NCBI GenBank assembly: GCA_964608675.1
Contig: CAZSOZ010000001.1
Coordinates: forward strand, 256,001-320,000
Direction of reading: 5' to 3'
DNA length: 64,000 bases
From: an uncultured archaeon
GTDB taxonomy: Archaea; Iainarchaeota; Iainarchaeia; Iainarchaeales; 1-14-0-10-31-34
Shown here: piece after piece, positions 12,032-39,104 of the stretch
Layout of the letters: every line of letters begins with the position of its first letter
Numbering within the stretch: position 1 is the stretch's first letter
Notes under the pieces: generated by a model
Database searches by the model: none
The model's input: only the letters and a program-made list of their open reading frames with translations
Told to the model about the DNA's origin: nothing
Position numbers and translations under genes: made by a program

Positions 12032-13240
12032 ATGCTGAAACCGATTTCTGAAATTCAAATAAAAGGAAAAACAATTTTAGTAAGAGCAGACTTAAATTCT
12101 TCTGTTAAAAACAGAAAAATTATTTCAGGCCAAAGACTTAAAGAGCATTCTAAGACACTTTTAATGCTTTCCTCTAAAAAAGCAAAAACAGTTGTTCTTT
12201 CTCATCAGGGAAGAAAAGAACGCGATGACTTTATTTCATTAAAAAATCATCTTTCAATTTTAGAAGAACTAACAGGAAAAAAAATTCAATTCAGTTCATG
12301 GAAAGAAAATTTCAAACAAAAAATTTCTGCTTTAAAGGAAGAAGAAATTCTGTTAATGGAAAACACAAGGTTTTTGGAATTTGAGTCAGAAGAAAAAACT
12401 CCTGAAGAACACTCAAAGCAGAAAATAATTCAGGAACTTGCATCGGTTGCTGATGCGTTTGTTTTGGATGCATTAAGTGTTTCTCACAGAAGCCATGCTT
12501 CTGTTGTAGGTTTTATTCCTTTAATTCCTTCTTTTTCCGGTCCAGTTTTGGATTCAGAATTAATTAATCTTGATAAAGCCCTTAATTTTAAGGAATCTCC
12601 AAGAGTTCTTTTTTTAGGAGGAGCAAAACCCGAGGATTCCATAAAAACTCTTTCTTTTTTTCTGAAAGAAAACAAAACAGACAAAGCCCTTCTTTCAGGG
12701 ATTTTAGGAGAACTTTTTTTGTCTGCTCAAGGAATAAAATTTGGTGCAAAAGACTCTTTTTTTGAATCAAAGAATTATTTTGAGTTAATTCCTGAAATAA
12801 AAGAAATTCATAGTTCATTCAAAGAAAAAATTTTTTTGCCCGAAGATTTTGCTTTAAACAAAAACAAAAAAAGAAAAAATCTTTCTGCTGAAAACCTGCC
12901 TTCAGATTTTGAAACAAAAGACATCGGAAAAAAAACAATTCAAAAATTTTCAGAGGAAATAAAAAAAGCTAAAATGATTGTATTTAACGGCCCGCCGGGA
13001 GTTTTTGAAGAAAAAGAATTTTCTTTGGGAACAAAATCAGTTTTTCAGGCCATGAAAGAAAACTCATGCTTTACTTTTTTAGGAGGAGGAGACACAGGAA
13101 CTGCTTTAATTTCTTTAGGGTTTTCTCCTTGTGATTTTTCTTTTGTTTCTTTGAGTGGAAAAGCTTCTTTAAAGTATTTGTCAGGAAAAAAATTGGTTGC
13201 AGTTGAAGCATTAAAGCAATCAAAACTAAAATTAAAATAA
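12032..13240 (+). CDS. pgk: Phosphoglycerate kinase
   Basis: LVRADLN, SHQGR, LMENTRF, LGGAK, FNGPPGVFE and GGGDT motifs. It follows gap. Confidence 0.95.
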   Translation: MLKPISEIQIKGKTILVRADLNSSVKNRKIISGQRLKEHSKTLLMLSSKKAKTVVLSHQGRKERDDFISLKNHLSILEELTGKKIQFSSWKENFKQKISALKEEEILLMENTRFLEFESEEKTPEEHSKQKIIQELASVADAFVLDALSVSHRSHASVVGFIPLIPSFSGPVLDSELINLDKALNFKESPRVLFLGGAKPEDSIKTLSFFLKENKTDKALLSGILGELFLSAQGIKFGAKDSFFESKNYFELIPEIKEIHSSFKEKIFLPEDFALNKNKKRKNLSAENLPSDFETKDIGKKTIQKFSEEIKKAKMIVFNGPPGVFEEKEFSLGTKSVFQAMKENSCFTFLGGGDTGTALISLGFSPCDFSFVSLSGKASLKYLSGKKLVAVEALKQSKLKLK

Positions 13241-13290
13241 TTTTTTTAAAGCTGAATAATTAATTTTTTTTTCTAAACTTAATTTTTTTT

Positions 13291-13794
13291 TTATGTTCCA
13301 CAGACTTCTTCAATACAATCACAGTTTCCATCGCATGCCTCAAAATCATTTTCTGTATTGCAGGTTTCGTCTGTACAATCACAGCCGTATTCTGCGCAAT
13401 ACTGTGATTCACATGAAGGATTGTTCATTTTGTTGGTTAATTCTCCTATTTCGTTGTAAACACAAGGCTCTATTGCATCAGGTCCTTCGCAGTTGTCATA
13501 AACAACAAAATTATAGATTCCTATTGCAGAGTACACTAAACTTAAAATCATAATTAAAGTAAAAATCCATGAAATTACTTCAAAGTGTTTGAAAACAATT
13601 CCTCCTATTTTAGGATTTCTTTTCATTATTTTTCCAGTTAACTTCATTTTCATTTTCTTGTCAAAAGATGTTTCACATTTTCTTAAAGTAATTCTTCGGA
13701 AAACACAGTCAAATGCTTCTTTTGCATAATCCTTGTATTTAGCTGAAAAAACTCCCAATAATGCAAAAACAATTAAGGCAATAAAACAAATCAT
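13291..13794 (-). CDS. Hypothetical membrane protein with a Cys-rich C-terminal tail
   Basis: Two hydrophobic segments. The acidic C-terminus contains about 11 Cys. Confidence 0.7.
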   Translation of the reverse strand: MICFIALIVFALLGVFSAKYKDYAKEAFDCVFRRITLRKCETSFDKKMKMKLTGKIMKRNPKIGGIVFKHFEVISWIFTLIMILSLVYSAIGIYNFVVYDNCEGPDAIEPCVYNEIGELTNKMNNPSCESQYCAEYGCDCTDETCNTENDFEACDGNCDCIEEVCGT

Positions 13795-13859
13795 TCAATC
13801 ACTTTTTAGAAATAAATATTACTGCAGGAATCCTTTTTAATTGAATTTACCTGCTTAGT

Positions 13860-16544
13860 TCATTCAATTAATACTGCCGGCTTTAATGGAAAAGCATTTC
13901 CTGCTTTTTTCTCTGAACTTTTTTCTGCTTCAATTAATTCAATTTCTGCGTTGAATTTTTCTTTTAATTTTTTTAGGTTTTCTTTTAAGGCTTTTATTTC
14001 ATTTATTTCAATTAATTCCTGTGTTTCATTCAGTTTTTTTACTGCAGTCTGAACAAATCCTTTTGCTTCTTTTGCATGCTGTTTTCCTTCTTTTGTCTGC
14101 ATTGCTTTTTTCATTCCAAACCCAAATTCAATTCTGTTGTTTTCCTGCTTTAATTTTTCTTCAAACAATTTTTTCATTAGAATCCATTTCCATTCAGGTG
14201 CAGTAAAAATTTTTATTCTGCTTATTTTTTGTTTTCCTGCAAGCTCTTTAATTTGTTCAACATCAGATTCCAGATTTTCAATGAATTCCTGTTGTTTTTC
14301 TATTTGAACGTAAATTTTTTTTTCTTCTGCTTTCGGCCATTCCTGTAAGCTGGCAAAACCTTTTCCTTTAAGTTTTTCCCATAATTCTTCACTTAAATGA
14401 GGTGCAAAAGGATTCAGCATTAAAACAAGTTTTTCAATTCCTTCTCTGAAAACAGGGCTTTCTTTTTTTTCAAATTTTCCCAGTTCACTGCTTAACTGGC
14501 TTAATTCTGAAACAGCTTTGTTTAACTGCAGGCTTTCAGTGTATTCAGTGCATTTTTTTATTGTTCTTTGAATTTTTGAAAGCAGTAATTTTTCTTTTGA
14601 ATCAAGTTTTGTTTTTATTTTTTCTTTTTTTGGGTTTTCTTTGATGATTGAATAAATTCTGTTTAAAAACTTGAATGAATTTTCTGTTCCTTTTGAATTC
14701 CATTCCATTTCGCTTTCCGGATTGCTTGCAGACAAAATAAACACTCTTGCAGTATCTGCTCCAAATCTTTGAATTATTTCTCCTGGGTCAACTATATTTC
14801 CCAGGCTTTTGCTCATTGCTTTTCCGTCTTTTAAAACCATTCCTTGTGTAAGGAGTTTTTCAAAAGGTTCATCAATTTTTATTAAACCCAAATCTCTTAT
14901 TGCTTTAGTGAAAAACCTTGCATACATTAAATGAAGTATTGCGTGTTCTATTCCTCCAATGTACTGGTTTACAGGCATCCAGTATTCTGCTTCTTTTTTG
15001 TCAAACATTTTGTCTGTTTTAGGAGAGCAGTACCTTAAAAAATACCAGCTTGAATCAAAAAAAGTGTCCATAGTGTCTGTTTCTCTTCTGGCTTTTCCTT
15101 TGCATTTTGGGCATTCTGTTTCAACAAATTCTTTAACTGAATCCAGAGGATTTCCTTTTCCTGTAAATTCTGCGTTTTCAGGAAGCTTAATCGGAAGATT
15201 TTTTTCTTGAACCAACTGAATCCCGCATTTTTTACAGTAAACAACAGGAATTGGTGTTCCCCAAAACCTCTGCCTTGAAATCAGCCAGTCCCTCAACTTA
15301 TAATTTACGGTTTTTTTTCCTATTTTTTTTTCTTCTAAAAAATCACTTATTTTTTCTTTTGCTTTTTCTGAATTCATTCCATTAAACTCTTTTGAGTTAA
15401 CCATTATTCCTTCTTCAGTGAAAGCTTCTTTCATTTCTTCTGCTTTTAGTTTTTTTTCTTTGGGCTGAATTACAACTTTAATTGGCAGACCATATTTTTT
15501 TGCAAACAAAAAATCTCTTTGGTCGTGCGCTGGAACAGCCATTACTGCTCCTGTACCGTATTCCATTACAGCGTAATCAGCAACAAAAATTTTGCATTCT
15601 TCTCCATTAACAGGATTAATGAAATGTTTTCCGATAAACATTCCTTTTTTTTCCAGTCCTTCTGATGTTCTTTCAATTATTGTCTGTTTTTTTACTTCCT
15701 TTAAGAATTCATTTAATTTTTCTTTGTATTTTGTTCCTTTAACCCATTCTTTTATTTTTTCGTGTTCCGGCGCAAACACTAAATAAGTTATTCCAAAAAT
15801 TGTGTCTGGCCGTGTAGTAAAAGTTGAAATTGTTTCTCCTGTTTCTTTTACTTTAAAATAAATTTCAGTTCCCTTGCTTTTTCCAATCCAGTTTTTTTGC
15901 ATTACTTTAACTCTTTCAGGCCAATCCTTTAATTTTTTTAAGTCTTCTAATAGTTCATCTGCATAATCAGTTATTTTCAGAAACCATTGCTCTAATTCTT
16001 TTTCTCCTGCAATACTTTTGCATCTCCAGCATTTTCCGTTTTCAACCTGCTCGTTTGCTAAAACTGTTCTGCATTCTTTGCACCAGTTTACTTTTGATTT
16101 TTTTTTGTAAGCCAGACCTTTTTTGTAAAATTCTCTGAACAGCCATTGATTCCATTTATAGTATTCTGGATCGGCTGTAGCAAAGCTTCTGTTCCAGTCA
16201 TAACTGAATCCAAGCATTTTTTGTTGTTCTTTCATTTCTTGAATTCTTTGGTAAGTCCATTTTTTTGGGTTTACTTTGCTTTTGATTGCCGCGTTTTCTG
16301 CAGGCAAACCTAAGGCATCATATCCCATTGGATACAATACATTAAATCCTTTCATTCTTTTGAATCTTGCAAGCGCGTCTCCGATTGAATAATTCCTTAC
16401 ATGCCCCATATGCAGTTTTCCTGAAGGATAAGGGAACATTTCCAGTACATAATATTTTTTTTTCTTTGAATCAGTTTTTACTTCAAAAACTTTTTTTTCT
16501 TTCCATTTTTTCTGCCATTTTTCTTCAATTTTTTTATGGTTCAT
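13860..16544 (-). CDS. leuS: Leucyl-tRNA synthetase (bacterial-type core, archaeal-type C-terminal domain)
   Basis: [18 protein letters not shown], editing domain [35 protein letters not shown] and AMSKS. It ends [15 protein letters not shown]. Confidence 0.97.
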
Positions 16545-21266: not shown

Positions 21267-24200
21267 ATGAAATTAAATTTCCTTTTAATTTTAATTCTTT
21301 TGTTTTTGTTTTCTGGCTGTTCAGAGGAAAAACTTGAATACAAAAACGCGTGCCTTTCTCTGACTTCTTATTCTTTTCAGGAAATTCCTGAATGCAGTTC
21401 TCAGGAAGACTGCTTTAAAGAAGTTGAAAAACACTTGTTTGATTTTAAGCAAACTTTTTCTTTTGAATCTTCTGATAAACTTCATTCTTATAAAAATAAT
21501 CTTGCTTCTTCTTGGCTTTATTTTAATAAATCCCTTAAGCTGGTAAAGGAACTAAACCGTTTGTGTTATTCTGATGATTTTTCTTTTCTGCCGGAAAAAA
21601 CCAATGAACTGGTTTTTTCTTTGGAAAAAGCATTTGAATTTTCAGATAAAGCAAGCCTTGATTCTTTTTCTTTTCTTTTAACAGAAAAAAATTTTCTGAA
21701 CAAACAAAACATTGAATTAATTCCTGAAGAGCTTTTGTTTGATGATTTTATTTTATTTAATCACAATCTGAATGAATTGTCTACTCCTGAAATATACAAG
21801 TCTTCTGGTTCTTATGTTTCAAAATATTTTAATGCTTCAGCAGAATTCAATGATTTTTCCTCTAAATTTGGTTTTTATTCTCTTTATTTGAATGAATTCA
21901 CTTCCTCTGACTTAATTAATTTTTATCAAAAAGACGCTCTTGATTCAGTTAAATCAAATAAATTTTATGTTCCACTGATGAAAAAAACTTTTTCTTCGGT
22001 TTCTTCCTTTATTTTCGGCTTAAATGACTTAAAAAGAACTGTTTCTGTTCTTAATTCAATTCCTTCAAACAAACTGTTTTTTTTGTATGGAAATTTTGTT
22101 TCTCCAAAAAATTCTGTTGCATCAGAATTTTCTCTGCTCGTTAAAAAAGTTTCAGAGCACAAGTTGTCTTTAAATGAATCAAATAATTCTTTGGTTTTGG
22201 AAATTGAATCTGATTTTAATGAAATTTCTTTTAAGCTTGACGAGCTCTCTGTTTCTTCTGTAAGCAGATTTGATTCAAATATAACTTCTTTTCTTTTTGA
22301 GGAACTGAATGCTTCTTTTATTTCAGAAAACAAAAACGAAATTTTTTCTGCTGAAACTTTTGTTTTTGAATCAAGAAAAAAGCTTTCACTGCTTAAATCA
22401 AAGTTCAATGAATTAAAAAGAAAGGATTCTTTTAATGAAATTTCTTTGGGAAAAAAATCTTCCCTGCTTAAGCAAATTAAAGCTGAAACTCTTTCCCTGA
22501 AAGAAGACATTGGTTTTTTTGCAGGAGCCTTTATTGATGAATTAATTGTTTTATGCAGTACAAAAACAGAATTAATTTCTTCAGAATTAAACCAAAAAGA
22601 TTTTTCTTCTTTTTCTTGGGAAATAACTTCTCTTGCCTCCAGAACTGCAGTAAAAATTGATTTATTTGAAGATGCTTCAAAAGAACAAAAAATTATTTAC
22701 TGTAAGGACACCATTCTCCTCAAAAAACAGCTTGATTCTGCTTTAGAAAACCAGGAAAAATTTCTTTTAAGTTCTTCTGAGTCCCTGAACGAATGCATTT
22801 CTTCCCTTGAAAAAATTTTTTATTCAAAAAATCTTTCAGTTTTTGTTGATTCTTTTTATTCCCTTAAATCCATGCAAAAAAACAGGCTTCCTTTTTCTTA
22901 TCTTTTGGATTCCTGTTCAGACCTCAAAAAAAGAATAACTGTTTACCTTTATTCTTATGATGAAGAAATAATTCAGGCAAACGATTTTTACATCAAATCA
23001 GAAAAAATTTTATCAAATCTTTCCTTTTTATCAAAAATTTATCCCGAATTCTTTAATTCAGTCAAAACAACCAATTTTATTTCTGATTTTGATGAAATTT
23101 CACTTGATTTTTCTTTAAAAAAACTTAAACCTGAATTTTTTCCTTTTTCTTCTGAAAAACTTTCTTTAATCAAAAAATTTAATCAAAAAATAAATTCTTT
23201 TTTTTCTTCTTCTTTTGGACAATTCCTTTCATTTAATTATTCAATAAAATCTTTTCCTTTAGAGCAGGCGGTTCTAGGAAAAACTTTTTTGGTTAAACAA
23301 AAAATCTTTTTTCCCAATCCTTTGAATGAACCAATTAACCTTGAATTCTCTTTTCTTTCTCCTTTTCTTTCTTCTGAAAATAAATTAATTCATTCATGCA
23401 TTAAAGAGATAACTAAAAGCAAGTCTAATTCAAGAATTTTAGTTTCTTGTTTTCCTGAGGAAGGGCTTTTGTTTGAATCAGACAAAAATTTACTGCTTTC
23501 TTTTTTTGATTCTTTTCCTGAATTAATTGAAGCAAACCAGAATTCTGTTTTGTTTTCTAAATCCCTGAAAATTGATTCTTTTTCACAAATTTCTTCTTTG
23601 AAGGCAGTTGTTCCTTTGGAATTTAATTCTGATAATGCTTTTGCTGTATTTAATTCACAGAAAATTCCTGTTGAAATAAAAGAAAAAAACGCGGTTTTTT
23701 ATTTGGAGGAACTTAATTCAGAGCCTTTGATTGAATTATTTTTTTCTGTTTCCAAACCTGTTTCTTTTGAATTTTCCGAGAAATCAAGAAAAAAACTTGA
23801 TGAAAACACTTTTTTGGTTTTTTTTGATTTACAGTTAAAAAACAATCTGGCTTTTGATTTTGATTCAATTAAAATTTTTCTTCCTTTAAATGACTCTGAT
23901 TCAATTCTTGAAGCAAAATTAACAGATTTTTCTTCTGAAATAAAAGTTTATTCTTTGGGAAAAAAATTTTTTTTTAAAACCTCTTTAAATAAACTTGAGT
24001 CAAAAAAATTTTTTCTTGAAATAAAAATAAAAGACTTTGATGAATACAAAAAATCATTGAAGAATTCTCTTTTATCTGAAATTTCATTGATTGAAGACCC
24101 TGTTTTCAGAAAAAATTTTCAGACAAAAATTAATTCTGCTGATTCCTTTGAAGAATTAATTGAATTAAATGCCAAACTTTCTTCTTTTCTGGAAGAAAAA

Positions 24201-25259
24201 AATTCTTTTATGAATTCAGAGTTTTTGTCTCTTAAGTCGTTGGTTGAAGAAAAAATTACAGGACTCAAAGAAACTGTTGCTTTTTTTGATTCAACAGGAT
24301 TTTATTCTGAATCAAATGAATTAAAATCAAAAATTCTGAAAGCTGAATCTGATTTAATCAAAGCTGTTTCTGTTTCTAAAGAAAAAGGAACAGAACTGCT
24401 TCTTTCTGTTAATTCTTTTTTGGAGGAAGTTTCTGACAAAAACCTTGAAGCATTTCTTTTAAACAAAAGAAACTTTGTTTTAGAAAAAACAGCGGGTTCA
24501 AATGAATTAATTGCTTTGCTGAACAGCAAAAAAATTTTTGACTTAAAGAACGCCCTGCTTGAACAAGACACTAATTTTTTGTCTTTTTTTTCAAAAAAAG
24601 ATTATTTTAATTCTGCTCTTTCTTTGAATTTAATGCAGTCTGATTCAAAAAAACTTCTTGAATTAATTTCCAAAGAAATCCAGCTTAAAAAACAAAAATT
24701 GAATGAAAAAAAAATTTTTTTCAAAGAAAAAAAGCAGTTAACTGAAATGCTTTTTTCTTCTCTTGAAAACGCTTTATCTGAAAGCAAATTTTATCTTTCT
24801 CCTATTTCAAAGTCAAGACTTAAATTTTTAAGAAATGAATTTGATTCAATTAATTTTTCTTTTAAGGACAGCAGTTCTCCTGAAAGCCTGCTTTCAGCTG
24901 AATTGCTTGCAGAACAATCAGACAAAGAATTAAATGCAATCCATGAAGAACTTTCTTTTTCTTTGAATAAATTAAAAGAAGACGCAAAAGTTTTCTTGTT
25001 GTCTGCAAAAATTTCAGGAAAAAATATTTCTTCTGCACAAACTCTTTTTGAGGAAGGAAAATACATTGATTCAATTAATGCTTCTTTTTTTTCAGCTGAA
25101 TCCTCTCCAACAGCTTTTGCTTTTCTTTCTTCTTTTGAAGTCCCTTTGCAGGTTTATCCTCTTCTTATTATAATTCTTTTTGTTGCAGGAAAAAAATTTT
25201 TTATTAAAAAAAAGAAGAAAAGAAAGCCTAAAAAGAAACATTTAAAGAGTTTGGAATAA
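21267..25259 (+). CDS. Large (1330 aa) hypothetical protein with an N-terminal lipobox and a C-terminal TM anchor
   Basis: LFSGC lipobox, helical/coiled-coil segments, and a C-terminal TM followed by a poly-Lys tail. Confidence 0.75.
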   Translation: MKLNFLLILILLFLFSGCSEEKLEYKNACLSLTSYSFQEIPECSSQEDCFKEVEKHLFDFKQTFSFESSDKLHSYKNNLASSWLYFNKSLKLVKELNRLCYSDDFSFLPEKTNELVFSLEKAFEFSDKASLDSFSFLLTEKNFLNKQNIELIPEELLFDDFILFNHNLNELSTPEIYKSSGSYVSKYFNASAEFNDFSSKFGFYSLYLNEFTSSDLINFYQKDALDSVKSNKFYVPLMKKTFSSVSSFIFGLNDLKRTVSVLNSIPSNKLFFLYGNFVSPKNSVASEFSLLVKKVSEHKLSLNESNNSLVLEIESDFNEISFKLDELSVSSVSRFDSNITSFLFEELNASFISENKNEIFSAETFVFESRKKLSLLKSKFNELKRKDSFNEISLGKKSSLLKQIKAETLSLKEDIGFFAGAFIDELIVLCSTKTELISSELNQKDFSSFSWEITSLASRTAVKIDLFEDASKEQKIIYCKDTILLKKQLDSALENQEKFLLSSSESLNECISSLEKIFYSKNLSVFVDSFYSLKSMQKNRLPFSYLLDSCSDLKKRITVYLYSYDEEIIQANDFYIKSEKILSNLSFLSKIYPEFFNSVKTTNFISDFDEISLDFSLKKLKPEFFPFSSEKLSLIKKFNQKINSFFSSSFGQFLSFNYSIKSFPLEQAVLGKTFLVKQKIFFPNPLNEPINLEFSFLSPFLSSENKLIHSCIKEITKSKSNSRILVSCFPEEGLLFESDKNLLLSFFDSFPELIEANQNSVLFSKSLKIDSFSQISSLKAVVPLEFNSDNAFAVFNSQKIPVEIKEKNAVFYLEELNSEPLIELFFSVSKPVSFEFSEKSRKKLDENTFLVFFDLQLKNNLAFDFDSIKIFLPLNDSDSILEAKLTDFSSEIKVYSLGKKFFFKTSLNKLESKKFFLEIKIKDFDEYKKSLKNSLLSEISLIEDPVFRKNFQTKINSADSFEELIELNAKLSSFLEEKNSFMNSEFLSLKSLVEEKITGLKETVAFFDSTGFYSESNELKSKILKAESDLIKAVSVSKEKGTELLLSVNSFLEEVSDKNLEAFLLNKRNFVLEKTAGSNELIALLNSKKIFDLKNALLEQDTNFLSFFSKKDYFNSALSLNLMQSDSKKLLELISKEIQLKKQKLNEKKIFFKEKKQLTEMLFSSLENALSESKFYLSPISKSRLKFLRNEFDSINFSFKDSSSPESLLSAELLAEQSDKELNAIHEELSFSLNKLKEDAKVFLLSAKISGKNISSAQTLFEEGKYIDSINASFFSAESSPTAFAFLSSFEVPLQVYPLLIIILFVAGKKFFIKKKKKRKPKKKHLKSLE

Positions 25260-27353: not shown

Positions 27354-27823
27354 TTTTTCCCTTTAATTTTTTTAAGTATTTGTTGTATGGAACTCTTTAA
27401 ATTTTTCTCGTTTTTTATTTCAATTATTTTTTTATAGTTTTTTTCTGCTTTTTTTTTGCAGTAATTTGTTTCCTCACAGTAAAGATTGTCCTGAATTTTT
27501 ATTTCAGTATAGCCTCTTTTTCTAAGCCTTTTTTCAAGAATCTTTCTTTTTGTTCTTAAAACAAAAAATAAATCTGTATTTATTTTCATTTCGCATAAAG
27601 TGTGGCCTTCAATTATTATGTTTTCTTTTTTTTTCAGGAATTCATTCATTTTTTTCTGGAATTTTTTTAAGTCTATTTCAACTTCGCTTCCTTTTCTTTT
27701 GCCTGTTTTTGTTTTTAAAGCAAAATCTTTTTCGTTTACTGTTTTCCAGTTTAATTTTTCCTTTAATTTTTCTGCTAAAACCGTTTTTCCTGTTCCAGGA
27801 ATCCCTGTAATTAAAACCTTCAT
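27350..27823 (-). CDS. Archaeal adenylate kinase AK6/Fap7-like P-loop kinase
   Basis: ITGIPGTGKT, IIIEGH and LEKRL.KRGY...KI.DN..CE. Confidence 0.88.
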   Translation of the reverse strand: MKVLITGIPGTGKTVLAEKLKEKLNWKTVNEKDFALKTKTGKRKGSEVEIDLKKFQKKMNEFLKKKENIIIEGHTLCEMKINTDLFFVLRTKRKILEKRLRKRGYTEIKIQDNLYCEETNYCKKKAEKNYKKIIEIKNEKNLKSSIQQILKKIKGKK

Positions 27824-28235
27824 TTTTTCACTTTTATTCTGTTTAATATTCCTCTAAAAAGAGAGCAAACAACTATTGGCATTTTAGTTAATTCAAATTC
27901 TATTGAATTAATTTTTTTTCCGTTTATTTCAACGGCTTTTCCTATTATTTCATTTTTTTTTACAAGTGAATCAAAATGCTTTGAATTGTCTCCTTTAACC
28001 AAAAATTTTTCTTTTTTTCTTTTCAGCATTCTGTGTAATAAAAATTTTTGGTTTCTGTAAAACATTATTATGTCTCCTGTTTTTAGTTTTTCTGATTCAA
28101 TTAACTTGATTTTTATTCTTGAATTTTCGTTGATTAAAGGAAGCATGCTTGTCCCTTTTGTTTGTACTTCAATTGTTTTTCCTTTATTGTTTTTTTTAAA
28201 CAAATCAACTGCCTGAATAAATGTTTTTTCTTTCA
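27820..28235 (-). CDS. S24/S26-family peptidase lacking an N-terminal TM anchor
   Basis: GTSMLPLI (catalytic Ser), GDIIMF, LHRML and VKGDN. Likely start MKEKTF at 28235. Confidence 0.85.
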
Positions 28236-28237
28236 TT

Positions 28238-29149
28238 TCATTCACAACTGAATTTTCTCTGCCTTTCAGAAACAAAATTGAGATTTCCAAGTTTTTCATT
28301 AAATGAAAGAAGGATATGCGGATTTTCTGCTTGCACGTAATAAATTTCTCTTAATTTTTTTTCTACTAACAGATTTATTTTGTATGCTTCCCTTCCTTCA
28401 AAGAAAATTTTTTTATCGAACTCAAATTTTATTTCTTTGTTTGGAACCATGAATTCTTTTGTTTCAATAAATTCATCGAAATTGAATTGTCCTCCTTCAT
28501 AATATAAGAAAAACAAGGGAAGCACAATATCTCTTTCAGTTAAATCAAAAAAATTTTTTTCTTTTAATCCTTTTTCAAGTGCGTTTTTACAGGATTCTGA
28601 ATAATTTAATTTAATTACTTTTGAGTTCTTGATCAGGATTTTTCCAAAAATTCTTTCTTTTGGAAACGAAACAGCAATAACTCCTTCAATAAAGTTTTCA
28701 TTTTTGTCCAAAACAAAAAAATTATAGTCTACGCTGAAATTAGAGTCAATTTTTTCATACAAAAAGTAATATTCCTGTCCTTTTTTGAATTCAATTTTCT
28801 TTAAAGGATTTATTTTTATTTCAAATTCTTTTGTTTTTCCGTCTGAAGGCATTATTTTCAAGAGAAAATTCATTCCTGTGATTATACACGGAAAAGAAAT
28901 TTCGTTTAATCCTTTTCTTAAATCAAAATAATTAACGCATTTTAATTCTTTTTCATTAAATACTTCTATTCTGGCTTTTTTTAATTCTTTTTGGGAAACA
29001 ATATTCAATTCAACTATTTTTTTTTCAAAGTCAAATGAATAACTATTTAATTCCAGTTCATAGTCATTTAATTTATTTTCTGGTTTTTTCTGAATGCATC
29101 CAAAAGCCAGCAAAAAAACAACCAATAAAAATAATGCTTTTTTTTTCAT
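28238..29149 (-). CDS. Hypothetical lipoprotein within the RiPP-like cluster
   Basis: MKKKALFLLVVFLLAFGC lipobox. Confidence 0.7.
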   Translation of the reverse strand: MKKKALFLLVVFLLAFGCIQKKPENKLNDYELELNSYSFDFEKKIVELNIVSQKELKKARIEVFNEKELKCVNYFDLRKGLNEISFPCIITGMNFLLKIMPSDGKTKEFEIKINPLKKIEFKKGQEYYFLYEKIDSNFSVDYNFFVLDKNENFIEGVIAVSFPKERIFGKILIKNSKVIKLNYSESCKNALEKGLKEKNFFDLTERDIVLPLFFLYYEGGQFNFDEFIETKEFMVPNKEIKFEFDKKIFFEGREAYKINLLVEKKLREIYYVQAENPHILLSFNEKLGNLNFVSERQRKFSCE

Positions 29150-29227: not shown

Positions 29228-29335
29228 TTACAAAGTAAAGCCGGTTTGTGGAGAAGCAGATATAAACATACTGTCATCCGGAGTAAAAACAATTTTTGTG
29301 TTTAATTTTTTTATTTCAGGCTTTTCGTATTTCAT
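29228..29335 (-). CDS. Putative RiPP precursor peptide (35 aa) MKYEKPEIKKLNTKIVFTPDDSMFISASPQTGFTL
   Basis: Hand-translated ATG 29335 to TAA 29228, below the ORF-track cutoff. The N-terminal YxxPxI is the RRE/PqqD-binding leader motif type. It lies between the radical SAM gene and the lipoprotein-peptidase genes. Confidence 0.72.
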   Translation of the reverse strand: MKYEKPEIKKLNTKIVFTPDDSMFISASPQTGFTL

Positions 29336-29393
29336 ACAATAAAAAAAACTTCATTACTATATAAATAATTATCTGTAGTTATTTTTTTTTGAT

Positions 29394-30470
29394 TTGATGG
29401 AAAAAATAAATAATTCAATTTATCACACGGATTTAATTTATACAAATAAATGCAATATTAGGTGCAGGCACTGCATTAATGACAGCTGTAAAGAAAAAAT
29501 AGGAAAACTTGGCTGCAACAAAGTTATTTCTATTTTAAATGAAATGCCAAAATTTAATGTTAAATATCTAGGAATAACAGGCGGAGAATCACTTATTTAT
29601 GAAAAAGAAATTCTTGAAATTATTTCTGAAGCAAAAAAACTTGGAATAGAATCTTCTTTAGTTTCAAATGGATTGTGGGCTTATAACAAAAAAAACACAA
29701 AAAAAGTGCTTTCAAAATTAACTAAAGCAGGGCTAAACAGGCTTAATGTAAGCTGTGATGAATTTCATTTAGAGCACGTTCCTATTCAGAATATTTTGAA
29801 TGTTTCCAGCGAAGCCAGAAAAATAAAAGACTTGGATTTTTTTCTTCGTTTTACTCAAACAAAAAACTATTCTGTTATAGATTTCATTTCAGAAAACAAA
29901 AAATTTTTTAAAAACGATTCTTCAAAAGATCCCTTAGGATTTTTTGTTCAACTGCTTTTGCCTTTAGGAAGGTCTTCAGTTAATGTTCCTGAACAGGATT
30001 ATTTTTTCTTTAAAAAATCAATTAAAACAAGATCTTGTAGTTTTAGAAGCAGTCCTTCAATTGATTTTAAAGGAACTTTTTCCATTTGCTGTTTAGGGTC
30101 TGATGCAGAAAACACGGCATTTCAGTTAGGAAACATTTATTCTGATGATATAAATGGTTTATTTGAAGCATACAAAAACAGCATTTTTGTTTTTTATCTT
30201 AAAGCAAAAGGACCTTATTTTATTGCAAAACTTGCAGAAAAAAATAATTTAAAAAAAATCAAGAAAACAAAAAAGTCTTTTGAGAAAAATATTGGAATAT
30301 GTGATTACTGCATACTTACTTTGAGTCAATATAAAAAAGAAGATATTTTAGAAATTTTGGAAGCTCATTTAAAGAAAAACAGAAAGGAAATGTTTAAGTG
30401 TTCAAAAGAAAATGTAAAGAATGCAGCAAAAAACTGGAAAGAATTGCAGACAAAACATTATTGGAAATAA
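29394..30470 (+). CDS. Radical SAM enzyme with a C-terminal auxiliary-cluster (twitch-like) domain, EpeE/YydG-like
   Basis: CNIRCRHC, ITGGE, SNGLW, VSCDEFH, LGR, and C-terminal C...ICC...GICDYC. Confidence 0.88.
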   Translation: MMEKINNSIYHTDLIYTNKCNIRCRHCINDSCKEKIGKLGCNKVISILNEMPKFNVKYLGITGGESLIYEKEILEIISEAKKLGIESSLVSNGLWAYNKKNTKKVLSKLTKAGLNRLNVSCDEFHLEHVPIQNILNVSSEARKIKDLDFFLRFTQTKNYSVIDFISENKKFFKNDSSKDPLGFFVQLLLPLGRSSVNVPEQDYFFFKKSIKTRSCSFRSSPSIDFKGTFSICCLGSDAENTAFQLGNIYSDDINGLFEAYKNSIFVFYLKAKGPYFIAKLAEKNNLKKIKKTKKSFEKNIGICDYCILTLSQYKKEDILEILEAHLKKNRKEMFKCSKENVKNAAKNWKELQTKHYWK

Positions 30471-30474: not shown

Positions 30475-30729
30475 TTATTTTTTAATCAGTTTAAAGGATT
30501 TTAGTTTTTTTATTAATTCTTTTGTATGACTTAAAGCTTTTTTTTCAGGTATCCCATATTTTTTTGCAAGTTTTAAAGCAATTTTTTTTTCATTATTTTT
30601 TCCGTTAATTTTTTTCCAGACAAAAGTTCCTGTTTTATTTAATACAAAAAAATCATTGTTTTCAGGATTAAAAACTATTGTTTCTCCGTCGACTTCTCTG
30701 GTTTCAACTTTCTTTGTTTTTTTAATCAT
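30475..30729 (-). CDS. PqqD-family RiPP recognition element (standalone RRE)
   Basis: REVDGETIVFNPENNDFFVLNKTGTFVWKKING......IA..LA.KY............I..L....LI. Likely start ATG 30729. Confidence 0.92.
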   Translation of the reverse strand: MIKKTKKVETREVDGETIVFNPENNDFFVLNKTGTFVWKKINGKNNEKKIALKLAKKYGIPEKKALSHTKELIKKLKSFKLIKK

Positions 30730-30771
30730 TTTTTCACTTTTTTGTTTTATATTATTAAAGAGCATTTGTTT

Positions 30772-31659
30772 TTAATTCAATTCTTTTTCAAGTTTTTCTT
30801 CAATTTTTTCCATTACTTTTTGTTGTATTGGAAGACGCAGTAAAAATGCAGGAACTTTTTGCATTAAATCAGAATACAAGCCAAGCCTTTCTTTTGCTTT
30901 AATTTTCGTGAAATTCAAGGGCCCATAATAATCATTCATAATTAATTTTGCGGTTCCCTCGAATTTTGAGAGTTTTTCTAGCTTTAATTTTTTTGCCTGA
31001 ATTATAAAAAAAACTGCTTTTAATTCAACTGGTTCACTGCTTTTTTTTTCCAGAATAAAAGGAACTGAATTAAAAGGACAGCTTTGAATAAAAAATTTTT
31101 TTCTTTTTTTAAACAAAAAATTGAGGTCTTCTCCTAAAATTAATCCTTGTTCGCACATTCTTGCAGTAGTGGTTTTTCCTGCTGTTGGAGCCCCGCAAAA
31201 AAGATATCCTTTATTTTTTTTTCTTACTGCTGATGAATGAATTAAACCGCATTCAAAATCATTAAAGTAAACTGCAATGCATTTTGAAAGATTGTCAATA
31301 AAAAAATTCCAAAAAAAAGGAGTGTTTGCATGTATTTCAATTTTTCCTTTGTTTTTGTTTAAATCAAGCCATCCAAAAAGATGCTCTTTTCCTTTTTCGC
31401 TTTTTTTTCCCTTGAATTTAATTAAGTTTTTTTTTTCATTAAACAATATTTTTTCATAAAAATTTCTTCTGTTTTTCAGTATTTGTTCATTTAAATCCAA
31501 GTTTCCTTTATAAAAAAAATACTCTAATTTTAAATCAGGTTTTTTGTTTGAAGCAAATTCTTTTTGAAATAAATTAAGGTAGTTTGAAATTTTTTTGTTG
31601 TTTGTTTTAATTGAAACAGTTTTTCCTGCAAAATAAAATTTAGATTCAAGCATTTTCAA
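30772..31659 (-). CDS. HPr kinase-like P-loop kinase (peptide-modifying type)
   Basis: LIHSSAV....GYLFCGAPTAGKTT...LGED and PVELKAVFFI.Q. Confidence 0.8.
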   Translation of the reverse strand: MKMLESKFYFAGKTVSIKTNNKKISNYLNLFQKEFASNKKPDLKLEYFFYKGNLDLNEQILKNRRNFYEKILFNEKKNLIKFKGKKSEKGKEHLFGWLDLNKNKGKIEIHANTPFFWNFFIDNLSKCIAVYFNDFECGLIHSSAVRKKNKGYLFCGAPTAGKTTTARMCEQGLILGEDLNFLFKKRKKFFIQSCPFNSVPFILEKKSSEPVELKAVFFIIQAKKLKLEKLSKFEGTAKLIMNDYYGPLNFTKIKAKERLGLYSDLMQKVPAFLLRLPIQQKVMEKIEEKLEKELN

Positions 31660-31693: not shown

Positions 31694-32773
31694 TTAGTTT
31701 ACTATTGAATGCCTTATTTTCCAGAAAAGCGGAAGAATAAATGAAAAAAAAACAACTTTTATTTTTTTCTTTAAGCCGTCTGTCCAATGCAATCTGTTTT
31801 TTGTGTTTTGATAATTATAAAAAAAAGCGTTTTTCTTTTTTATCAGTTTTTTAATTGTTTTTTTCCTTAAATAATTCAGTTTGCGTTTATCTGAAATTTT
31901 TTTTAGTTTTTTTATTCCTTTGATTTCTTTTCCGAATAATTCTTTAAGCAGTTCATTAAAATAAACCAGTTCTTCTACTGCATTATATTTCACTGCTTTT
32001 TCTTTGAGTTTTTTTTCGTTTAATCCTTTTGAATTAATTTCATTTACGTCAACCAAAGATTCAAATATTTTGTTAAATGGATCGTGATAAACACTGCTTA
32101 AAACAGAAATAATTACGTTGTCTTCTTTGCAGGGAATCCTTAAATTATTTATTTTAGTGGAATCTCTCCATATTTCATTTAAGTTTATTTGAAATGAATT
32201 AACCGGAAAAAACAAGCTTTTGTGGGGTTCTGCAATATATGTAAAACCGTTTTCTTTTTTTTTCATTAAAGGATAATGCTGTAAGTTTTCATAAAACCAA
32301 TTAAAAAACACTTTTTTGGTTTTTTTTGATTTTTCCCAGAAGTCTGCTGAATCAGAAAAATATTTTTTTTTCTTTAAAATCCTTTTTGTTTTATTGTAGT
32401 TTTTTTCTTTAATTAAAAAATCAAAGTCTGCTGAAACTCTTAACATTGTTTTGCTGTAAATCGAATAATTCAAAGCAGTTCCTTTTATTGCAATAAAATT
32501 TATTCTTTTTTTTTGGAATTCTTCTGCAAGACAGTCAATTTCTTTTTTATACAAGAAATTTTTTAATAAAATTTTTTTGTTTATTAAATTTAATTCTTTT
32601 GCTGTTTTCGGAGCAAGTTTTTTGTTTATTTTTTTTGAAATAAATCCTGTTATTCTGTGATAAACACATAATTCCAAGAATTTTTTTTGATTAATTCCTT
32701 TATAATCTTTTTTTTTGGTTTTTTCCTGTATTAATTTAATTAACAGTTTTTCTTCTGTTTTCATTTGAATCAT
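31694..32773 (-). CDS. Nucleotidyltransferase family protein (NTP_transf_5-like)
   Basis: HRI, IAIKGTAL...Y....LRVSADFDFLI and E.H. Confidence 0.85.
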   Translation of the reverse strand: MIQMKTEEKLLIKLIQEKTKKKDYKGINQKKFLELCVYHRITGFISKKINKKLAPKTAKELNLINKKILLKNFLYKKEIDCLAEEFQKKRINFIAIKGTALNYSIYSKTMLRVSADFDFLIKEKNYNKTKRILKKKKYFSDSADFWEKSKKTKKVFFNWFYENLQHYPLMKKKENGFTYIAEPHKSLFFPVNSFQINLNEIWRDSTKINNLRIPCKEDNVIISVLSSVYHDPFNKIFESLVDVNEINSKGLNEKKLKEKAVKYNAVEELVYFNELLKELFGKEIKGIKKLKKISDKRKLNYLRKKTIKKLIKKKNAFFYNYQNTKNRLHWTDGLKKKIKVVFFSFILPLFWKIRHSIVN

Positions 32774-35864: not shown

Positions 35865-38800
35865 TTACTTTAATCTGACTGCATCTAAATCTCTTATTGC
35901 GTTTGAATTAATTCTGAATTTGTTTGAAACATATCTTGCGAATTCTATTGCAGTGTCTTTTTCTCCGTGGTTTACAATTATTTTTTTGGGTTTTGGATTT
36001 AAATTTCTTATATAGTTTACTAATTGGTTTCTGTCTGAGTGCCCTGAAAACCCTTCAACGGTTTCCACTCTCATGTTAATTGGCAGTTCTCTTGTTTTTC
36101 CATTATCGCTTATTGGAGTTTTTTTTAGTCCTTTTTGTATTCTGTTTCCTAATGATCCTTCTCCCTGATATCCGACAAACACCATTGTGTTTTTTGGGTT
36201 TTCTGCCATTTTTTGAAAGTATTGAACTGAAGGTCCTCCTGTAAGCATTCCTGAAGAAGCAATAATTATTGCTTCTTTTTCTTCTAAAATTTTGTCTCTT
36301 TCTTTTGCGTTTGCTGTCTGAAATAATTCTGAAGTAAAAGGAGAATCATTTTGGAGTACTCTTCTTTGAACTCCTTTTCTTAAGTATTCTGGATAAGCTG
36401 TATGAATTGCGCTTGCTTCTTTTGTCATTCCGTCAACAAACACTTTTCCGTCAAGCATTCCTTTTCTATAATATTCTTCTATTACCAGCATTATTTCTTG
36501 GGCTCTTCCAACAGAAAAAACCGGAATCAAAGTGTTTCCTCCTTTATGCATTGTTTCTTTTAAGATTCTGATTAATTGTTCTTCTGCTTTGTTTCTGTCC
36601 TGCTGTATGTCGTCTTTTCCTCCGTAAGTTGATTCAATAATCAAAGTTTCTAGTCTTGGATAATTAATGTCTACATTATTAAAGAGTCTTGTAAAACCAA
36701 ATTTAATGTCTCCGCTGTATACTAGATTGTGTGCTCCTTCTCCTATATGAAAATGAACTGAAGCACTTCCTAAAATATGTGATGCATTATGTAAAGTTAT
36801 TCTCATGTCAGGAGCAATATCTGTTACTTCTCTGTATTCACGTGTAATGCAGTATTTTAGCATTTCTTTTACGTCTCTTTCTGTGTATGGAGGTTCTTTT
36901 CCTTCTTTAATTAATACATCAATATAATCAAACTGCAGTAATGCCATTAAATCTCTTGTAGGTTTAGTATTATGCAAACAAATTGGAGCATTCCCTCCAA
37001 CAAAATTTTCATCTTCATCTACTGAAAAGTCATAAACATGGCCATTGCTTGCTTCAACTTTCTTTATTTTTGTAATAGGCAAGAAACTTAGATCAGATTC
37101 AGCCAATTTTGACAGGTTTTCTTGAATTGAATATGTGCTTCCCTTGGTGTTTACTATCCACCCTTTATCAATCAACGCTTTTAGTCTTTCTTTTGTAACA
37201 CTTTTCCTTTCTTTGAGTCTGTGATAATACCATTCTTTGTTGAAGTTTGTTTCTTTAAGGGGAATTATTTCAGTCGACTTTTTATCTAGTCTTTTTGTTC
37301 CTCCAAAATCACTTAAGTTCAAGGTTATTCTATGTGCAATATTTTTTGTTTTTGCTGAGACAACATGTCTTGAAAATAAGGTATAATTGATTCCAAGTTG
37401 GGTTAGAACATATGAAATATCAGAAACTAATCTTTCACTTACACTTATAGCGTGTGCAGTTTTGTTTAACAAATTTACTGTTCCGTCTCCCTTAAAATAT
37501 GCATCAACAAATTGCATTTTAAGTTCATTTGATACATTGAAAACTATTTCTGGGACATGTTTACTTGTTGCTTTTTTATATTCTTTGAAAAAGTAGTTTT
37601 TAAACAAATCCCTTACTACTATTGAATTAACTGAAACTGAAATAGTATTTCTATTTTTAACTGCTTCCTTTGCTTCTAGACCGAAAACTGTTTTAATGCA
37701 GTTCTTTAGTTCTTTAACTATTTCTTCTTCTTTTAATCCAAAAGTAAACCTAACAGCCCTTTTTTCAATGTGCCCTTCTGAAGCAAAGTAACCCAAAATT
37801 CTTAAGAGTTCTTTGTTGACCTCTAATACTTGGGGGATGCCTTTGCTTTGTTTTGTTTTAATTTTTCCATTTTTGAATAAATATTTGTTTTCATTCATTT
37901 TTCCCTTTAAGTTAATTAACTTAGTTTCTTGTGTTGGGATTTTTTGAGGCACTACTAATTGGTCACCTTCAGAAAGCTCGTTGACTTTAATTTCTTTTAT
38001 TTTTCCGTTTTTCAATACAAAAACACTGTGGCTTCCTGTCACTTTAACTTTTCTCCCTGTTTTTGCAGTGATTTCAAATAAGTCATCATCAACTGAATGT
38101 CTTATAACTTCTTTTACTTTTTTAAATCTGACTTTATAGTCTTTTTTAGAAAAACAAGGCACTTCAATATTTCTTTCAGGTTTCGCTGCAATAAATTCAT
38201 TGTAAGGTAATTCTTCTTTTTCTTTTGATTCATCAATTATTGAATCAATTACTTTTCCAATTTTTTCAGTTTTAATTACGCCATCTTCTTTAATCATTAC
38301 TTGTTCTTCATAATCTACGCTGCAATAAACAGGCCCTCGATAACCCATTTTAAATAATAATGGAATTAAACCTGAATGATCTAAATGCGCGTGGCTTATT
38401 ACTACTCCATCTAGCTGGTCTAATGGAAACCTTATTGCTTCAAGGTAAGGGTATGGTTGTTCAATATTTGCTACGTCTACTCCCACATCTAATAACACTT
38501 TTGTTTCAGGTGTTTCAATCATTAAACAGCTTTTTCCTACTTCCCTGAATCCACCTAATGCAGTTAATCTAACCCAGCCATTGTTTTTGTTTTTTTCTCT
38601 GTAAATTTTTTTTGCTGTTTCATTTAAAATTTTTTTTCTTTCTGAACTGTATTTATGAAGATGGTGCCTTATTCCTTTGAGTATTTCTGATTCGCTTGTA
38701 GGGCTTCTTAAAATATTAGGCGTCCAGCCTGTCTTTAAAATGATTTCTTTTGATGTTTCTCCGCCTTTTCCTATTACTAATCCGGGTTTTATTGCATCAA

Positions 38801-39104
38801 TTACTACTTCGCTGAAAGCAGGATTAAAGTAAATTTCTTTTATTTCTGCGCTTTCAGGAACCAATTCCTGAATTACTTTTTTTGCATGCATTTCGTCTGA
38901 CAAAAGGCTTTTGTCTGTTCTGATATTTACTCTTTTTTTTAATTCAAATGCAATTTTTGCAACAAAGTTTTCGTTTTCAAAAAAAGCTTTTGGATTTCTT
39001 GTATAAATTGCTACTTCAGGGCCTTCCATTTCAATATTTGTTATTTGAGTTTCTTTTGGAAGGTTTGACTGAATTATTTCTTTTACTTCTTTTAATGCAT
39101 CCAT
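35865..39104 (-). CDS. fttA: Beta-CASP ribonuclease aCPSF1/FttA (KH + MBL + beta-CASP) containing an intein
   Basis: KPGLVIGKGG KH motif, LGGFREVG, SHAHLDH, HILGS, YSGD and FSGHSD. It is next to the proteasome beta gene and is 628 aa after intein removal. Confidence 0.95.
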   Translation of the reverse strand: MDALKEVKEIIQSNLPKETQITNIEMEGPEVAIYTRNPKAFFENENFVAKIAFELKKRVNIRTDKSLLSDEMHAKKVIQELVPESAEIKEIYFNPAFSEVVIDAIKPGLVIGKGGETSKEIILKTGWTPNILRSPTSESEILKGIRHHLHKYSSERKKILNETAKKIYREKNKNNGWVRLTALGGFREVGKSCLMIETPETKVLLDVGVDVANIEQPYPYLEAIRFPLDQLDGVVISHAHLDHSGLIPLLFKMGYRGPVYCSVDYEEQVMIKEDGVIKTEKIGKVIDSIIDESKEKEELPYNEFIAAKPERNIEVPCFSKKDYKVRFKKVKEVIRHSVDDDLFEITAKTGRKVKVTGSHSVFVLKNGKIKEIKVNELSEGDQLVVPQKIPTQETKLINLKGKMNENKYLFKNGKIKTKQSKGIPQVLEVNKELLRILGYFASEGHIEKRAVRFTFGLKEEEIVKELKNCIKTVFGLEAKEAVKNRNTISVSVNSIVVRDLFKNYFFKEYKKATSKHVPEIVFNVSNELKMQFVDAYFKGDGTVNLLNKTAHAISVSERLVSDISYVLTQLGINYTLFSRHVVSAKTKNIAHRITLNLSDFGGTKRLDKKSTEIIPLKETNFNKEWYYHRLKERKSVTKERLKALIDKGWIVNTKGSTYSIQENLSKLAESDLSFLPITKIKKVEASNGHVYDFSVDEDENFVGGNAPICLHNTKPTRDLMALLQFDYIDVLIKEGKEPPYTERDVKEMLKYCITREYREVTDIAPDMRITLHNASHILGSASVHFHIGEGAHNLVYSGDIKFGFTRLFNNVDINYPRLETLIIESTYGGKDDIQQDRNKAEEQLIRILKETMHKGGNTLIPVFSVGRAQEIMLVIEEYYRKGMLDGKVFVDGMTKEASAIHTAYPEYLRKGVQRRVLQNDSPFTSELFQTANAKERDKILEEKEAIIIASSGMLTGGPSVQYFQKMAENPKNTMVFVGYQGEGSLGNRIQKGLKKTPISDNGKTRELPINMRVETVEGFSGHSDRNQLVNYIRNLNPKPKKIIVNHGEKDTAIEFARYVSNKFRINSNAIRDLDAVRLK
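36969..38321 (-). mobile_element. Intein (451 aa) with a LAGLIDADG homing endonuclease
   Basis: Splits the conserved GPVYC/TKPTRDL. It starts SVDYEE and has block B VTGSHSVF, endonuclease motifs LGYFASEG and FVDAYFKGDG, block F VYDFSV, and ends LHN before Thr(+1). Confidence 0.95.

Follow-up and report, generated by a model that had tools for sequence, protein, structure and literature searches.

What does a relative of the bacterial epipeptide epimerase EpeE (YydG) do in an archaeon with a tiny genome? This question is raised by a gene at 29394..30470 (+) in a 64,000-nt stretch of DNA from an uncultured archaeon of the Iainarchaeota (contig CAZSOZ010000001.1, positions 256,001 to 320,000; hereafter the window), which encodes a radical S-adenosylmethionine (SAM) enzyme of 358 aa, here called rSAM. 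We found that rSAM is a distant but clear structural relative of EpeE, with a candidate precursor peptide that carries a lasso-type leader, a standalone PqqD-family protein and kinase- and nucleotidyltransferase-like genes as its neighbors. These genes form a conserved module similar to those for peptides that are synthesized ribosomally and modified post-translationally (RiPPs), and the module probably specifies an undescribed modified-peptide pathway. For rSAM itself, we see roughly an even chance that it is a two-cluster peptide maturase of the EpeE/YydG type, assisted by a RiPP recognition element (RRE), that epimerizes the core of the adjoining peptide.

A distant relative of EpeE with a predicted EpeE-type fold

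The open reading frame (ORF) of rSAM opens with TTG at 29394, with an ATG directly after it at 29397. The ATG is the probable start, and the database copy of the protein (P0001, 357 aa) begins there. The SAM-cluster motif CX3CX2C reads CNIRCRHC (residues 20-27, 29451..29474; C20, C24, and C27), and GGE occupies residues 63-65. An earlier sequence-only reading of the gene had singled out four further motifs as shared with EpeE, and each was located in the ORF translation: SNGLW (residues 91-95, 29664..29678), SCDEFH (residues 120-125, 29751..29768), the vicinal ICC (residues 231-233, 30084..30092), and the terminal ICDYC (residues 302-306, 30297..30311). Their counterparts sngfw, sydeyh, pcc, and icgvc occur in the same order in the aligned YydG chain of the PDB. 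A further conserved Cys is C215, and the C-terminal half ahead of the tail holds five Cys in all, namely four candidate ligands of an auxiliary cluster (C215, C232, C303, and C306) and the candidate hydrogen donor C233. In Pfam, the radical SAM core PF04055 scored 47.5 bits against a cut-off of 29.5, which places rSAM in the superfamily, and Fer4_12 also matched. PF13186 (SPASM) gave no match in rSAM even with expectation values (E) up to 10, unlike in some of its relatives, and rSAM does not show the combination of a seven-Cys motif and PF13186 that marks canonical SPASM enzymes with two auxiliary clusters.

The top NCBIfam model for rSAM was TIGR04078, the YydG family of radical SAM peptide epimerases (107.9 bits, E 6.7e-31), with residues 17-307 aligned to 8-292 of its 309 profile positions; MoaA, in second place, reached 53 bits over the N-terminal core only. 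Among PDB sequences, full-length matches were obtained only with YydG/EpeE chains (8ai1, 8ai3, and 8ai6; E 1.2e-13 to 3.1e-13; residues 17-304). The family and PDB matches are both too strong to be accidental. This alignment pairs SNGLW, SCDEFH, and CC of rSAM with sngfw, sydeyh, and pcc of EpeE and sets C232/C233 on EpeE C222/C223, so that the vicinal CC motifs do correspond. The alignment ends at residue 304, which leaves the register of the terminal CxxC uncertain, although both sequences do have I-C-x-x-C. An AlphaFold model of rSAM, built from a 36-sequence alignment, reached a predicted local distance difference test (pLDDT) score of 90.9 and a predicted template modeling (pTM) score of 0.90. 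The nine best PDB matches of this model in a fold search were all EpeE chains (E 1.7e-19 to 2.4e-18), with template modeling (TM) scores of 0.71-0.74 when normalized to the query and 0.78-0.84 when normalized to the target, and the next folds (CteB, SkfB, MoaA, viperins, BtrN, anSME, and PqqE) scored 0.44-0.52, with CteB, SkfB, and MoaA at 0.49-0.50. As modeled, rSAM has the EpeE-type fold, a radical SAM core with a T-SPASM extension. Curated families, solved sequences, and solved folds thus all place EpeE/YydG nearest to rSAM, in line with the resemblance that had been proposed from the motifs.

The reference for these comparisons is EpeE, encoded by the epipeptide locus of Bacillus subtilis, epeXEPAB (PDB 8AI1-8AI6; NCBIfam TIGR04078). 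According to PMC13012085, EpeE has a single auxiliary cluster, held by a T-SPASM (extended twitch) domain, and C223, opposite SAM, is its proposed H-atom donor. The two enzymes have comparable core lengths and the same order of motifs (CX3CX2C, GGE, SNG[LF]W, S-x-DE[FY]H, Cys, CC, and I-C-x-x-C), with one Cys about 16-17 residues ahead of the vicinal CC. In rSAM, the number of Cys is likewise compatible with one auxiliary cluster, and a Cys is retained opposite the H donor in the alignment. Neither protein carries a fused RRE. For rSAM this had been stated before, and the model bears it out, since a SAM motif that starts at residue 20, a first strand at residues 11-17, and a purely helical C-terminal tail leave no space for such a domain. 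A difference lies in this tail, which is about 40 aa longer than in EpeE.

We then asked how well these residues are conserved. An exhaustive search of 1.84 billion representatives returned 4151 relatives of rSAM at E ≤1e-3, 890 at ≤1e-10, and 10 at ≤1e-30, the nearest being 42% identical; a word-index protein search gave a single useful relative (P0002). In alignment A1, 36 of 36 members matched TIGR04078 (best 3e-63). Counted over rSAM and its 149 best representatives (n = 150), the SAM-cluster Cys are kept in 144-145 sequences and GGE in 149-150, and W95, S120, and H125 in 149, 150, and 149, respectively. The candidate ligands are nearly as constant (C215 in 146, C232 in 142, C303 in 143, and C306 in 140), and these four conserved Cys would fit one auxiliary [4Fe-4S] cluster. 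C233, the counterpart of the EpeE H donor in the alignment, occurs in 137 of these 150 best sequences from a large set of relatives, and the CC pair occurs in 5/5 archaeal and 16/18 locus-derived sequences. N-terminal extensions of ~95-330 aa were seen in 7 of the 149 representatives and a long C-terminal extension in one; Pfam found no domains in the extended representatives besides further radical SAM/SPASM units. To our knowledge, no family member besides EpeE has been characterized. In a maximum-likelihood tree of 63 rows, made up of 18 locus-derived sequences and those 45 of the representatives P0010-P0059 that are 290-400 aa long (any outside this range were left out, as were the truncated P0014 and P0017), the archaeal enzymes form one clade (9 rows, SH-aLRT 99), and the deep nodes are weak.

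A candidate precursor peptide with a lasso-type leader

Divergent from rSAM, with start codons 58 nt apart, lies an ORF for a 35-aa candidate precursor peptide (29228..29335, -; MKYEKPEIKKLNTKIVFTPDDSMFISASPQTGFTL). A homologous small minus-strand ORF occupies the equivalent place, between the gene for a lipoprotein-like protein (p303) and rSAM, in all four related archaeal loci, and thus in 5/5 archaeal loci with the window. Over these loci the leader reads Y-[EK]-K-P-x-I-[KR]-x-[LI]-N-x-K; the window has Y-E-K-P-E-I, and Y-x-K-P-x-I is kept in 5/5. The cores are hypervariable, with many Ser, Thr, Ala, Gly, Val, and Ile residues and without Cys in 5/5, and the core of locus L004 has no aromatic residue either. 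RiPP precursors are usually recognized by just such a pairing of a conserved leader and a variable core. In a motif scan, each archaeal locus had this one precursor copy and no other. We infer that this peptide is the likely substrate of rSAM. The composition of the cores also bears on the reaction. Cys-free cores, together with the non-aromatic core of L004, disfavor thioether or aromatic cross-links, and cores this variable fit a backbone reaction better than a cross-link between side chains.

The leader resembles that of lasso peptides, for which PMC10368454 gives the motif YxxPxL. In its PqqD-type RRE (B1) and its YxxPxL-type leader motif, the window cluster matches lasso peptide biosynthesis.

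The DNA around the precursor ORF yielded two further observations. Between the precursor and rSAM genes (29336..29393) there is an A/T-rich TATA-like stretch (~29357..29369), ~25-35 nt from the start codons of both ORFs; its placement suggests a single bidirectional archaeal promoter region, with 5' leaders that would be short or absent. In locus L001, a degenerate second leader-like remnant was spotted by eye in the DNA upstream of the precursor ORF.

A standalone PqqD-family protein beside rSAM

Convergent with the 3' end of rSAM is the gene for a standalone PqqD-family protein (an RRE) of 96 aa (30475..30765, -; Pfam PqqD 4.6e-13), which is kept in loci L002-L004. In NCBIfam it came closest to two chaperone models for lasso PqqD proteins (3.5e-9 and 4.5e-9), without reaching the cut-off of either. 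A complex prediction for rSAM and PqqD passed the mark that 116/157 solved complexes and 2/215 mismatched pairs pass, with a score of 0.50 against 0.02 for the best of three controls; passing scores of ≤0.60 were obtained for 18 of the 157 solved complexes and for both passing mismatches. Agreement between runs was 83% of contacts or more, and the partner had a pLDDT of at least 79. As a prediction, this lends weak support to a contact between the two proteins. The earlier suggestion that a standalone PqqD could serve rSAM is therefore in keeping with both the adjoining gene and the modeled complex.

A gene set conserved in archaea and present in Acidobacteria

Beyond the PqqD gene lie those for a P-loop protein of 295 aa (HSSA...GAPTAGKTT...GEDLN; 30772..31659, -; NCBIfam ScmC 1.8e-4) and for an NTP_transf_5 (PF14907) nucleotidyltransferase-family protein of 359 aa (31694..32773, -; Pfam 4.6e-23; kept in L002-L004). 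The P-loop protein is a candidate peptide kinase, weakly related to ScmC and HPr kinase, and its kinase-like label comes from weak NCBIfam matches only. Its profile matched PDB entries at the level of the P-loop only (ABC ATPases best at 0.015, Hpr(Ser) kinase at E 0.18), and its best Pfam match was AAA_29 (0.012). An AlphaFold model of it from a five-row alignment was discarded as unusable (pLDDT 41.5, pTM 0.34).

A scan of reference genomes found four related archaeal loci (L001-L004), all from Iainarchaeota/Diapherotrites (two of them titled Candidatus Iainarchaeum and Candidatus Diapherotrites), whose rSAM orthologues are 40-43% identical to that of the window. By tblastn, L002-L004 have the order and orientation of the window: a large lipoprotein, p300, p386 (-), a kinase (-), an S24 peptidase (-), p303 (-), rSAM (+), PqqD (-), the P-loop protein (-), NTP_transf_5 (-), a GT4 glycosyltransferase (+), and a membrane protein (+). 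L001 has a matching left flank, followed by two tandem rSAM copies and the contig end. These copies lie at 7992..9050 and 9065..9901, the second being cut by the contig end.

Near-full-length rSAM matches also led to 13 bacterial loci, with 115 ORFs called around the matches; 81 ORFs from 12 of these loci were compared with Pfam, leaving out L011, which mirrors L009, and distal or short antisense ORFs. The acidobacterial locus L014 (Acidobacteriaceae) encodes, in one direction, a precursor, a P-loop protein (297 aa; ScmC 2.7e-6, HprK_rel_A 6.6e-5, HprK_rel_B 8.1e-5), a YydG-like rSAM with 96 bits for TIGR04078, a PqqD of the lasso type (1.7e-11), an NTP_transf_5 protein (1.4e-52), and a lasso B2 peptidase that scores over its cut-off (2.4e-20). 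An outer-membrane efflux gene follows the set, and there is no GT4. The L014 precursor ends ...TYSKPDIMEYGSVSQVTQGGRPFAAFGFPEPEALLSVTATVL; if its core begins at GG, YSKPDI stands at -17..-12 and Thr at -2, an exact match to the lasso leader layout described in PMC10368454. L005 (Bryobacteraceae) has rSAM, NTP_transf_5, and B2, and in both L005 and L014 an NTP_transf_5 gene also adjoins the rSAM homologue.

The remaining bacterial loci comprise precursors with Nif11 leaders, accompanied by another rSAM and by C39-ABC exporters (L008, L013, and L016), multi-rSAM clusters (L009 and L012), and peptidases with transporters (L006, L007, and L010). Neighbors typical of RiPP clusters, whether further rSAMs, precursors, peptidases, transporters, or the NTP_transf_5/B2 pair, were present in 12/12 bacterial loci scanned, and from these contexts the rSAM family looks RiPP-dedicated. 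As a side observation, rSAM genes are densely clustered in L015 (Tissierella creatinini), where a B12-binding rSAM and another rSAM are followed by three YydG-like copies in tandem (6146..9130).

Resemblance to lasso, SynChlorMet, and epipeptide pathways

Several parts of the module have counterparts in lasso clusters with split B1/B2 and with HPr-kinase-like (K) and nucleotidyltransferase-like (N) tailoring genes (e.g., pseudomycoidin psm and bsf). These are the PqqD-type B1, the leader Y-x-x-P-x-[LI], and a P-loop kinase-like gene that adjoins an NTP_transf_5-type gene, like PsmK and PsmN (PMC9266682). There, the PsmK kinase phosphorylates the C-terminal Ser and PsmN, a nucleotidyltransferase homologue, adds hexose. 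L014 extends the likeness with a B2 peptidase and a T at -2. The differences are equally clear. A radical SAM enzyme is present here and none occurs in known lasso pathways. Neither the lasso B2 cysteine peptidase nor an Asn-synthetase-like cyclase was among the 11 window proteins scanned (25299 to 35552), and in L014 no Asn-synthetase-type cyclase was found among six ORFs compared with NCBIfam and eight compared with Pfam. In addition, the L014 core has no apparent acidic residue at position 7-9, which a macrolactam requires.

Weaker likenesses connect the module with two further systems in which a PqqD homologue is paired with a kinase-like or uncharacterized protein and radical SAM enzymes. 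In the SynChlorMet cassette (ScmC/ScmD/ScmE/ScmF; TIGR04248-04249), the P-loop protein matches ScmC and PqqD matches ScmD; in the HPr-rel-A system (TIGR04352-04355), PqqD matches PqqD_rel_X, and the L014 P-loop protein matches HprK_rel_A and HprK_rel_B. All of these matches are weak, with scores far under the curated cut-offs (e.g., 20.9 versus 125 bits). The radical SAM enzymes of the Scm cassette are two SPASM proteins like PqqE, with no YydG-like enzyme.

The setting also differs from that of EpeE. The epe locus is described from Firmicutes (in a reference cited by PMC8326336), whereas the host of rSAM is a DPANN-type archaeon. Where epe has a membrane protease and an ABC transporter, rSAM has PqqD, the P-loop protein, and NTP_transf_5 as neighbors, as well as an S24-like peptidase and a lipoprotein-like protein, and the precursor beside it bears a lasso-type leader.

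We tentatively entertain the idea that the module is a cyclase-less, lasso-type offshoot in DPANN archaea and Acidobacteria. Its class-defining maturase would be the EpeE-like rSAM, recruited via the B1-type RRE to the YxxPx[IL] leader, and its product would be linear, with D-amino acids, and might also receive phosphate or sugar groups from the K- and N-like enzymes. Were this the case, the module would be a new RiPP class and give the first radical-SAM-epimerized peptide from archaea. EpeE-type epimerases have so far been described in Firmicutes epipeptide loci, without use of a leader or RRE. What sets this case apart is a clear if distant structural relative of EpeE in a tiny-genome archaeon, coupled to a conserved precursor whose leader is of the lasso type, to an RRE that stands alone, and to tailoring genes resembling those for kinases and nucleotidyltransferases, in a module that Acidobacteria also have. 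Should the chemistry be epimerization, the irreversible installation of D-residues would reach both archaea and an RRE-dependent setting, and a lasso-derived pathway minus its cyclase would be defined. We found no description in the open-access papers searched that combines a nucleotidyltransferase, an HPr kinase, PqqD, a radical SAM enzyme, and a precursor peptide, and nothing related on YydG-like enzymes. Titles and abstract openings in that set of papers likewise held nothing relevant on archaeal or DPANN radical SAM RiPPs and no genome-mining report of new EpeE-type epimerases.

Proposed mechanism

In the mechanism that we propose, the standalone PqqD would bind the lasso-type Y-x-K-P-x-I leader and present the peptide. 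rSAM would then reductively cleave SAM at the C20/C24/C27 cluster, and the resulting 5'-deoxyadenosyl radical would take the C-alpha hydrogen from a core residue. C233, beside the putative ligand C232, would give a hydrogen atom to the opposite face and so leave a D-residue, as proposed for C223 of EpeE, variants of which are reported to give peptide fragmentation. The P-loop (HPr-kinase-like) and NTP_transf_5 proteins may carry out further tailoring, by analogy with the lasso K and N proteins.

Observations against the proposal and competing explanations

Several observations weigh against this proposal. Identity between rSAM and EpeE is 18-19%, and the equivalog cut-off of TIGR04078 is 300 bits against the 107.9 bits of rSAM. 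By these measures rSAM is a distant EpeE relative and no curated or bona fide YydG equivalog, so the chemistry of EpeE cannot be transferred to it with confidence. The column of EpeE D210, the residue mutated in PDB 8ai6, holds S219 in rSAM with a gap beside it; over the 150 family members it is not conserved, with L, G, gap, N, D (11/150), and others. Conservation of C233 could stem in part from its position next to a cluster ligand, and L009 and L012 have CG instead of CC, so the family may not have one common chemistry. Among the tree's sequences, the archaeal rSAMs and the acidobacterial ones (L005 and L014) that have K/N-like genes are not sisters, and with deep nodes this weak neither a single origin nor an independent recruitment of the module can be claimed. 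The membrane protease and ABC transporter of an epeXEPAB-type context were not found among the neighbors of rSAM. As for the PqqD step, EpeE is reported to act leader-independently and to have no RRE partner, which weakens the analogy, and the passing complex score may reflect likeness to solved rSAM-RRE arrangements. Finally, the precursor ORF is itself predicted from sequence. D-amino acid installation is our best guess, from homology at ~19% identity.

A different radical reaction on the same peptide, by an enzyme of the same family and fold, is a possibility to which we give a lesser but appreciable weight; it might be a C-C, C-O, or C-N cross-link, a dehydrogenation, or another C-alpha/C-beta modification. 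The low identity to EpeE, the score far under the equivalog cut-off, and the unconserved D210 column all leave room for it, as do the diverse RiPP contexts of the wider family, which include Nif11 precursors with Cys cores, multi-rSAM clusters, and CG variants. A lasso-type leader and B1 (with B2 in L014) in the absence of a cyclase also mean that another enzyme may define the product, and in the cross-linking variant the cross-link would constrain the peptide in lieu of the lasso cyclase. Hypervariable cores with no conserved donor/acceptor pair, no Cys, and, in L004, no aromatic residue speak against such a reaction, and so does the retention of the H-donor-aligned Cys in most of the family and in all five archaeal copies. 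We give a similar weight to the possibility that rSAM epimerizes its substrate leader-independently like EpeE and that PqqD serves only the P-loop and NTP_transf_5 enzymes. EpeE and the proteusin epimerases are reported to be leader-independent, and EpeE to have no RRE partner (PMC8326336), and in L005 NTP_transf_5 comes immediately after rSAM, without an intervening PqqD. Because the L005 contig begins with rSAM, however, an upstream PqqD gene is possible, and the predicted contact between rSAM and PqqD, though weakly supported, points the other way.

Action on a non-peptide substrate (a cofactor, lipid, or glycan), with the small ORF and PqqD lying only incidentally beside glycosyltransferase and membrane-protein genes, appears improbable. 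A GT4 and a 531-aa membrane protein are indeed near and syntenic in relatives, and several twitch-domain rSAMs take small molecules, with MoaA, BtrN, BlsE, and viperin among the weaker fold matches of the rSAM model. Yet these folds fall well behind EpeE in TM score by query length (0.44-0.52 versus 0.71-0.74), all 12 bacterial loci scanned have RiPP-typical neighbors, and the L014 enzyme sits in a precursor/B1/B2 operon without GT4. Least probable of all, we believe, is that rSAM was recently swapped in as a tailoring cassette, as the sequence-only reading had suggested from its inverted orientation. That reading was right that rSAM is the sole long plus-strand ORF between the S24-like peptidase and the NTP_transf_5 gene, and the 40-43% identity among rSAM orthologues does lie below that of some flanking genes (e.g., GT4, 58-69%). 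However, the P-loop and NTP_transf_5 proteins have diverged to a similar degree (44-47%), the archaeal rSAMs form one well-supported clade, and position and orientation are identical in 3/3 archaeal loci that span both flanks, with an equal left flank in L001. The inversion being conserved, the orientation is ancestral to the archaeal clade, and together with the flat GC content over the rSAM region (0.25-0.27) this argues against a recent swap-in. The suggestion fares no better against the co-directional set of rSAM, PqqD, P-loop, and NTP_transf_5 genes in L014, which, with the orientation kept in the archaeal loci, makes rSAM a long-standing core member of the module.

Neighboring genes and further observations

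An S24/S26-type peptidase is encoded two genes downstream of the precursor (27820..28299, -; Pfam Peptidase_S24 4.4e-8; probable start ATG 28236, ~138 aa). In NCBIfam it matched archaeal signal peptidase I (6.6e-11, under the cut-off) and the nickel superoxide dismutase (NiSOD) maturation protease (2e-5), and its translation has no hydrophobic N-terminal stretch. This soluble-looking protein may be the leader peptidase or a housekeeping signal peptidase, and its membership of the pathway is uncertain; as a leader peptidase candidate it was not found in L004, where the gene is missing and a 140-nt gap remains (5959..6099). In L001, the S24-like peptidase and a Fap7-like kinase are a single 296-aa ORF (5751..6641, -).

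Directly downstream of the precursor ORF lies p303 (28238..29149, -; 303 aa), with a signal-peptide/lipobox-like N-terminus (LLAFGC). It is kept at 35-37% identity in 4/4 related loci and matched no Pfam or NCBIfam family; whether it belongs to the pathway is uncertain. An assignment of p303 to CARDB was rejected, as the best score in an atlas search (0.86) lay under the level at which it would have exceeded a lead.

The GT4 glycosyltransferase and the 531-aa multi-pass membrane protein lie just past the NTP_transf_5 gene. In L004, the membrane protein of the 531-aa type that follows GT4 is duplicated in tandem (11672..13276 and 13302..14951). On the other side of the module, a Ser/Phe/Leu/Lys-rich protein of 1330 aa (21267..25259, +) resembles a lipobox protein at its N-terminus, and at its C-terminus a hydrophobic segment precedes a poly-Lys tail; it belongs to no Pfam family and is 49-61% identical in related archaea.

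Rfam and tRNA scans of the window returned nothing. The window also encodes the FttA KH domain and a proteasome subunit, which mark the host as archaeal, as do its nearest relatives, metagenome-assembled genomes of Iainarchaeota/Diapherotrites. The beta-CASP ribonuclease FttA/aCPSF1 (35865..39104, -) is 1079 aa long, compared with 628 aa in the L002 and L003 orthologues, and its metallo-beta-lactamase domain is interrupted by an intein that contains a homing endonuclease of the LAGLIDADG type (Pfam Intein_splicing 6.7e-21, LAGLIDADG_3 2.1e-13).

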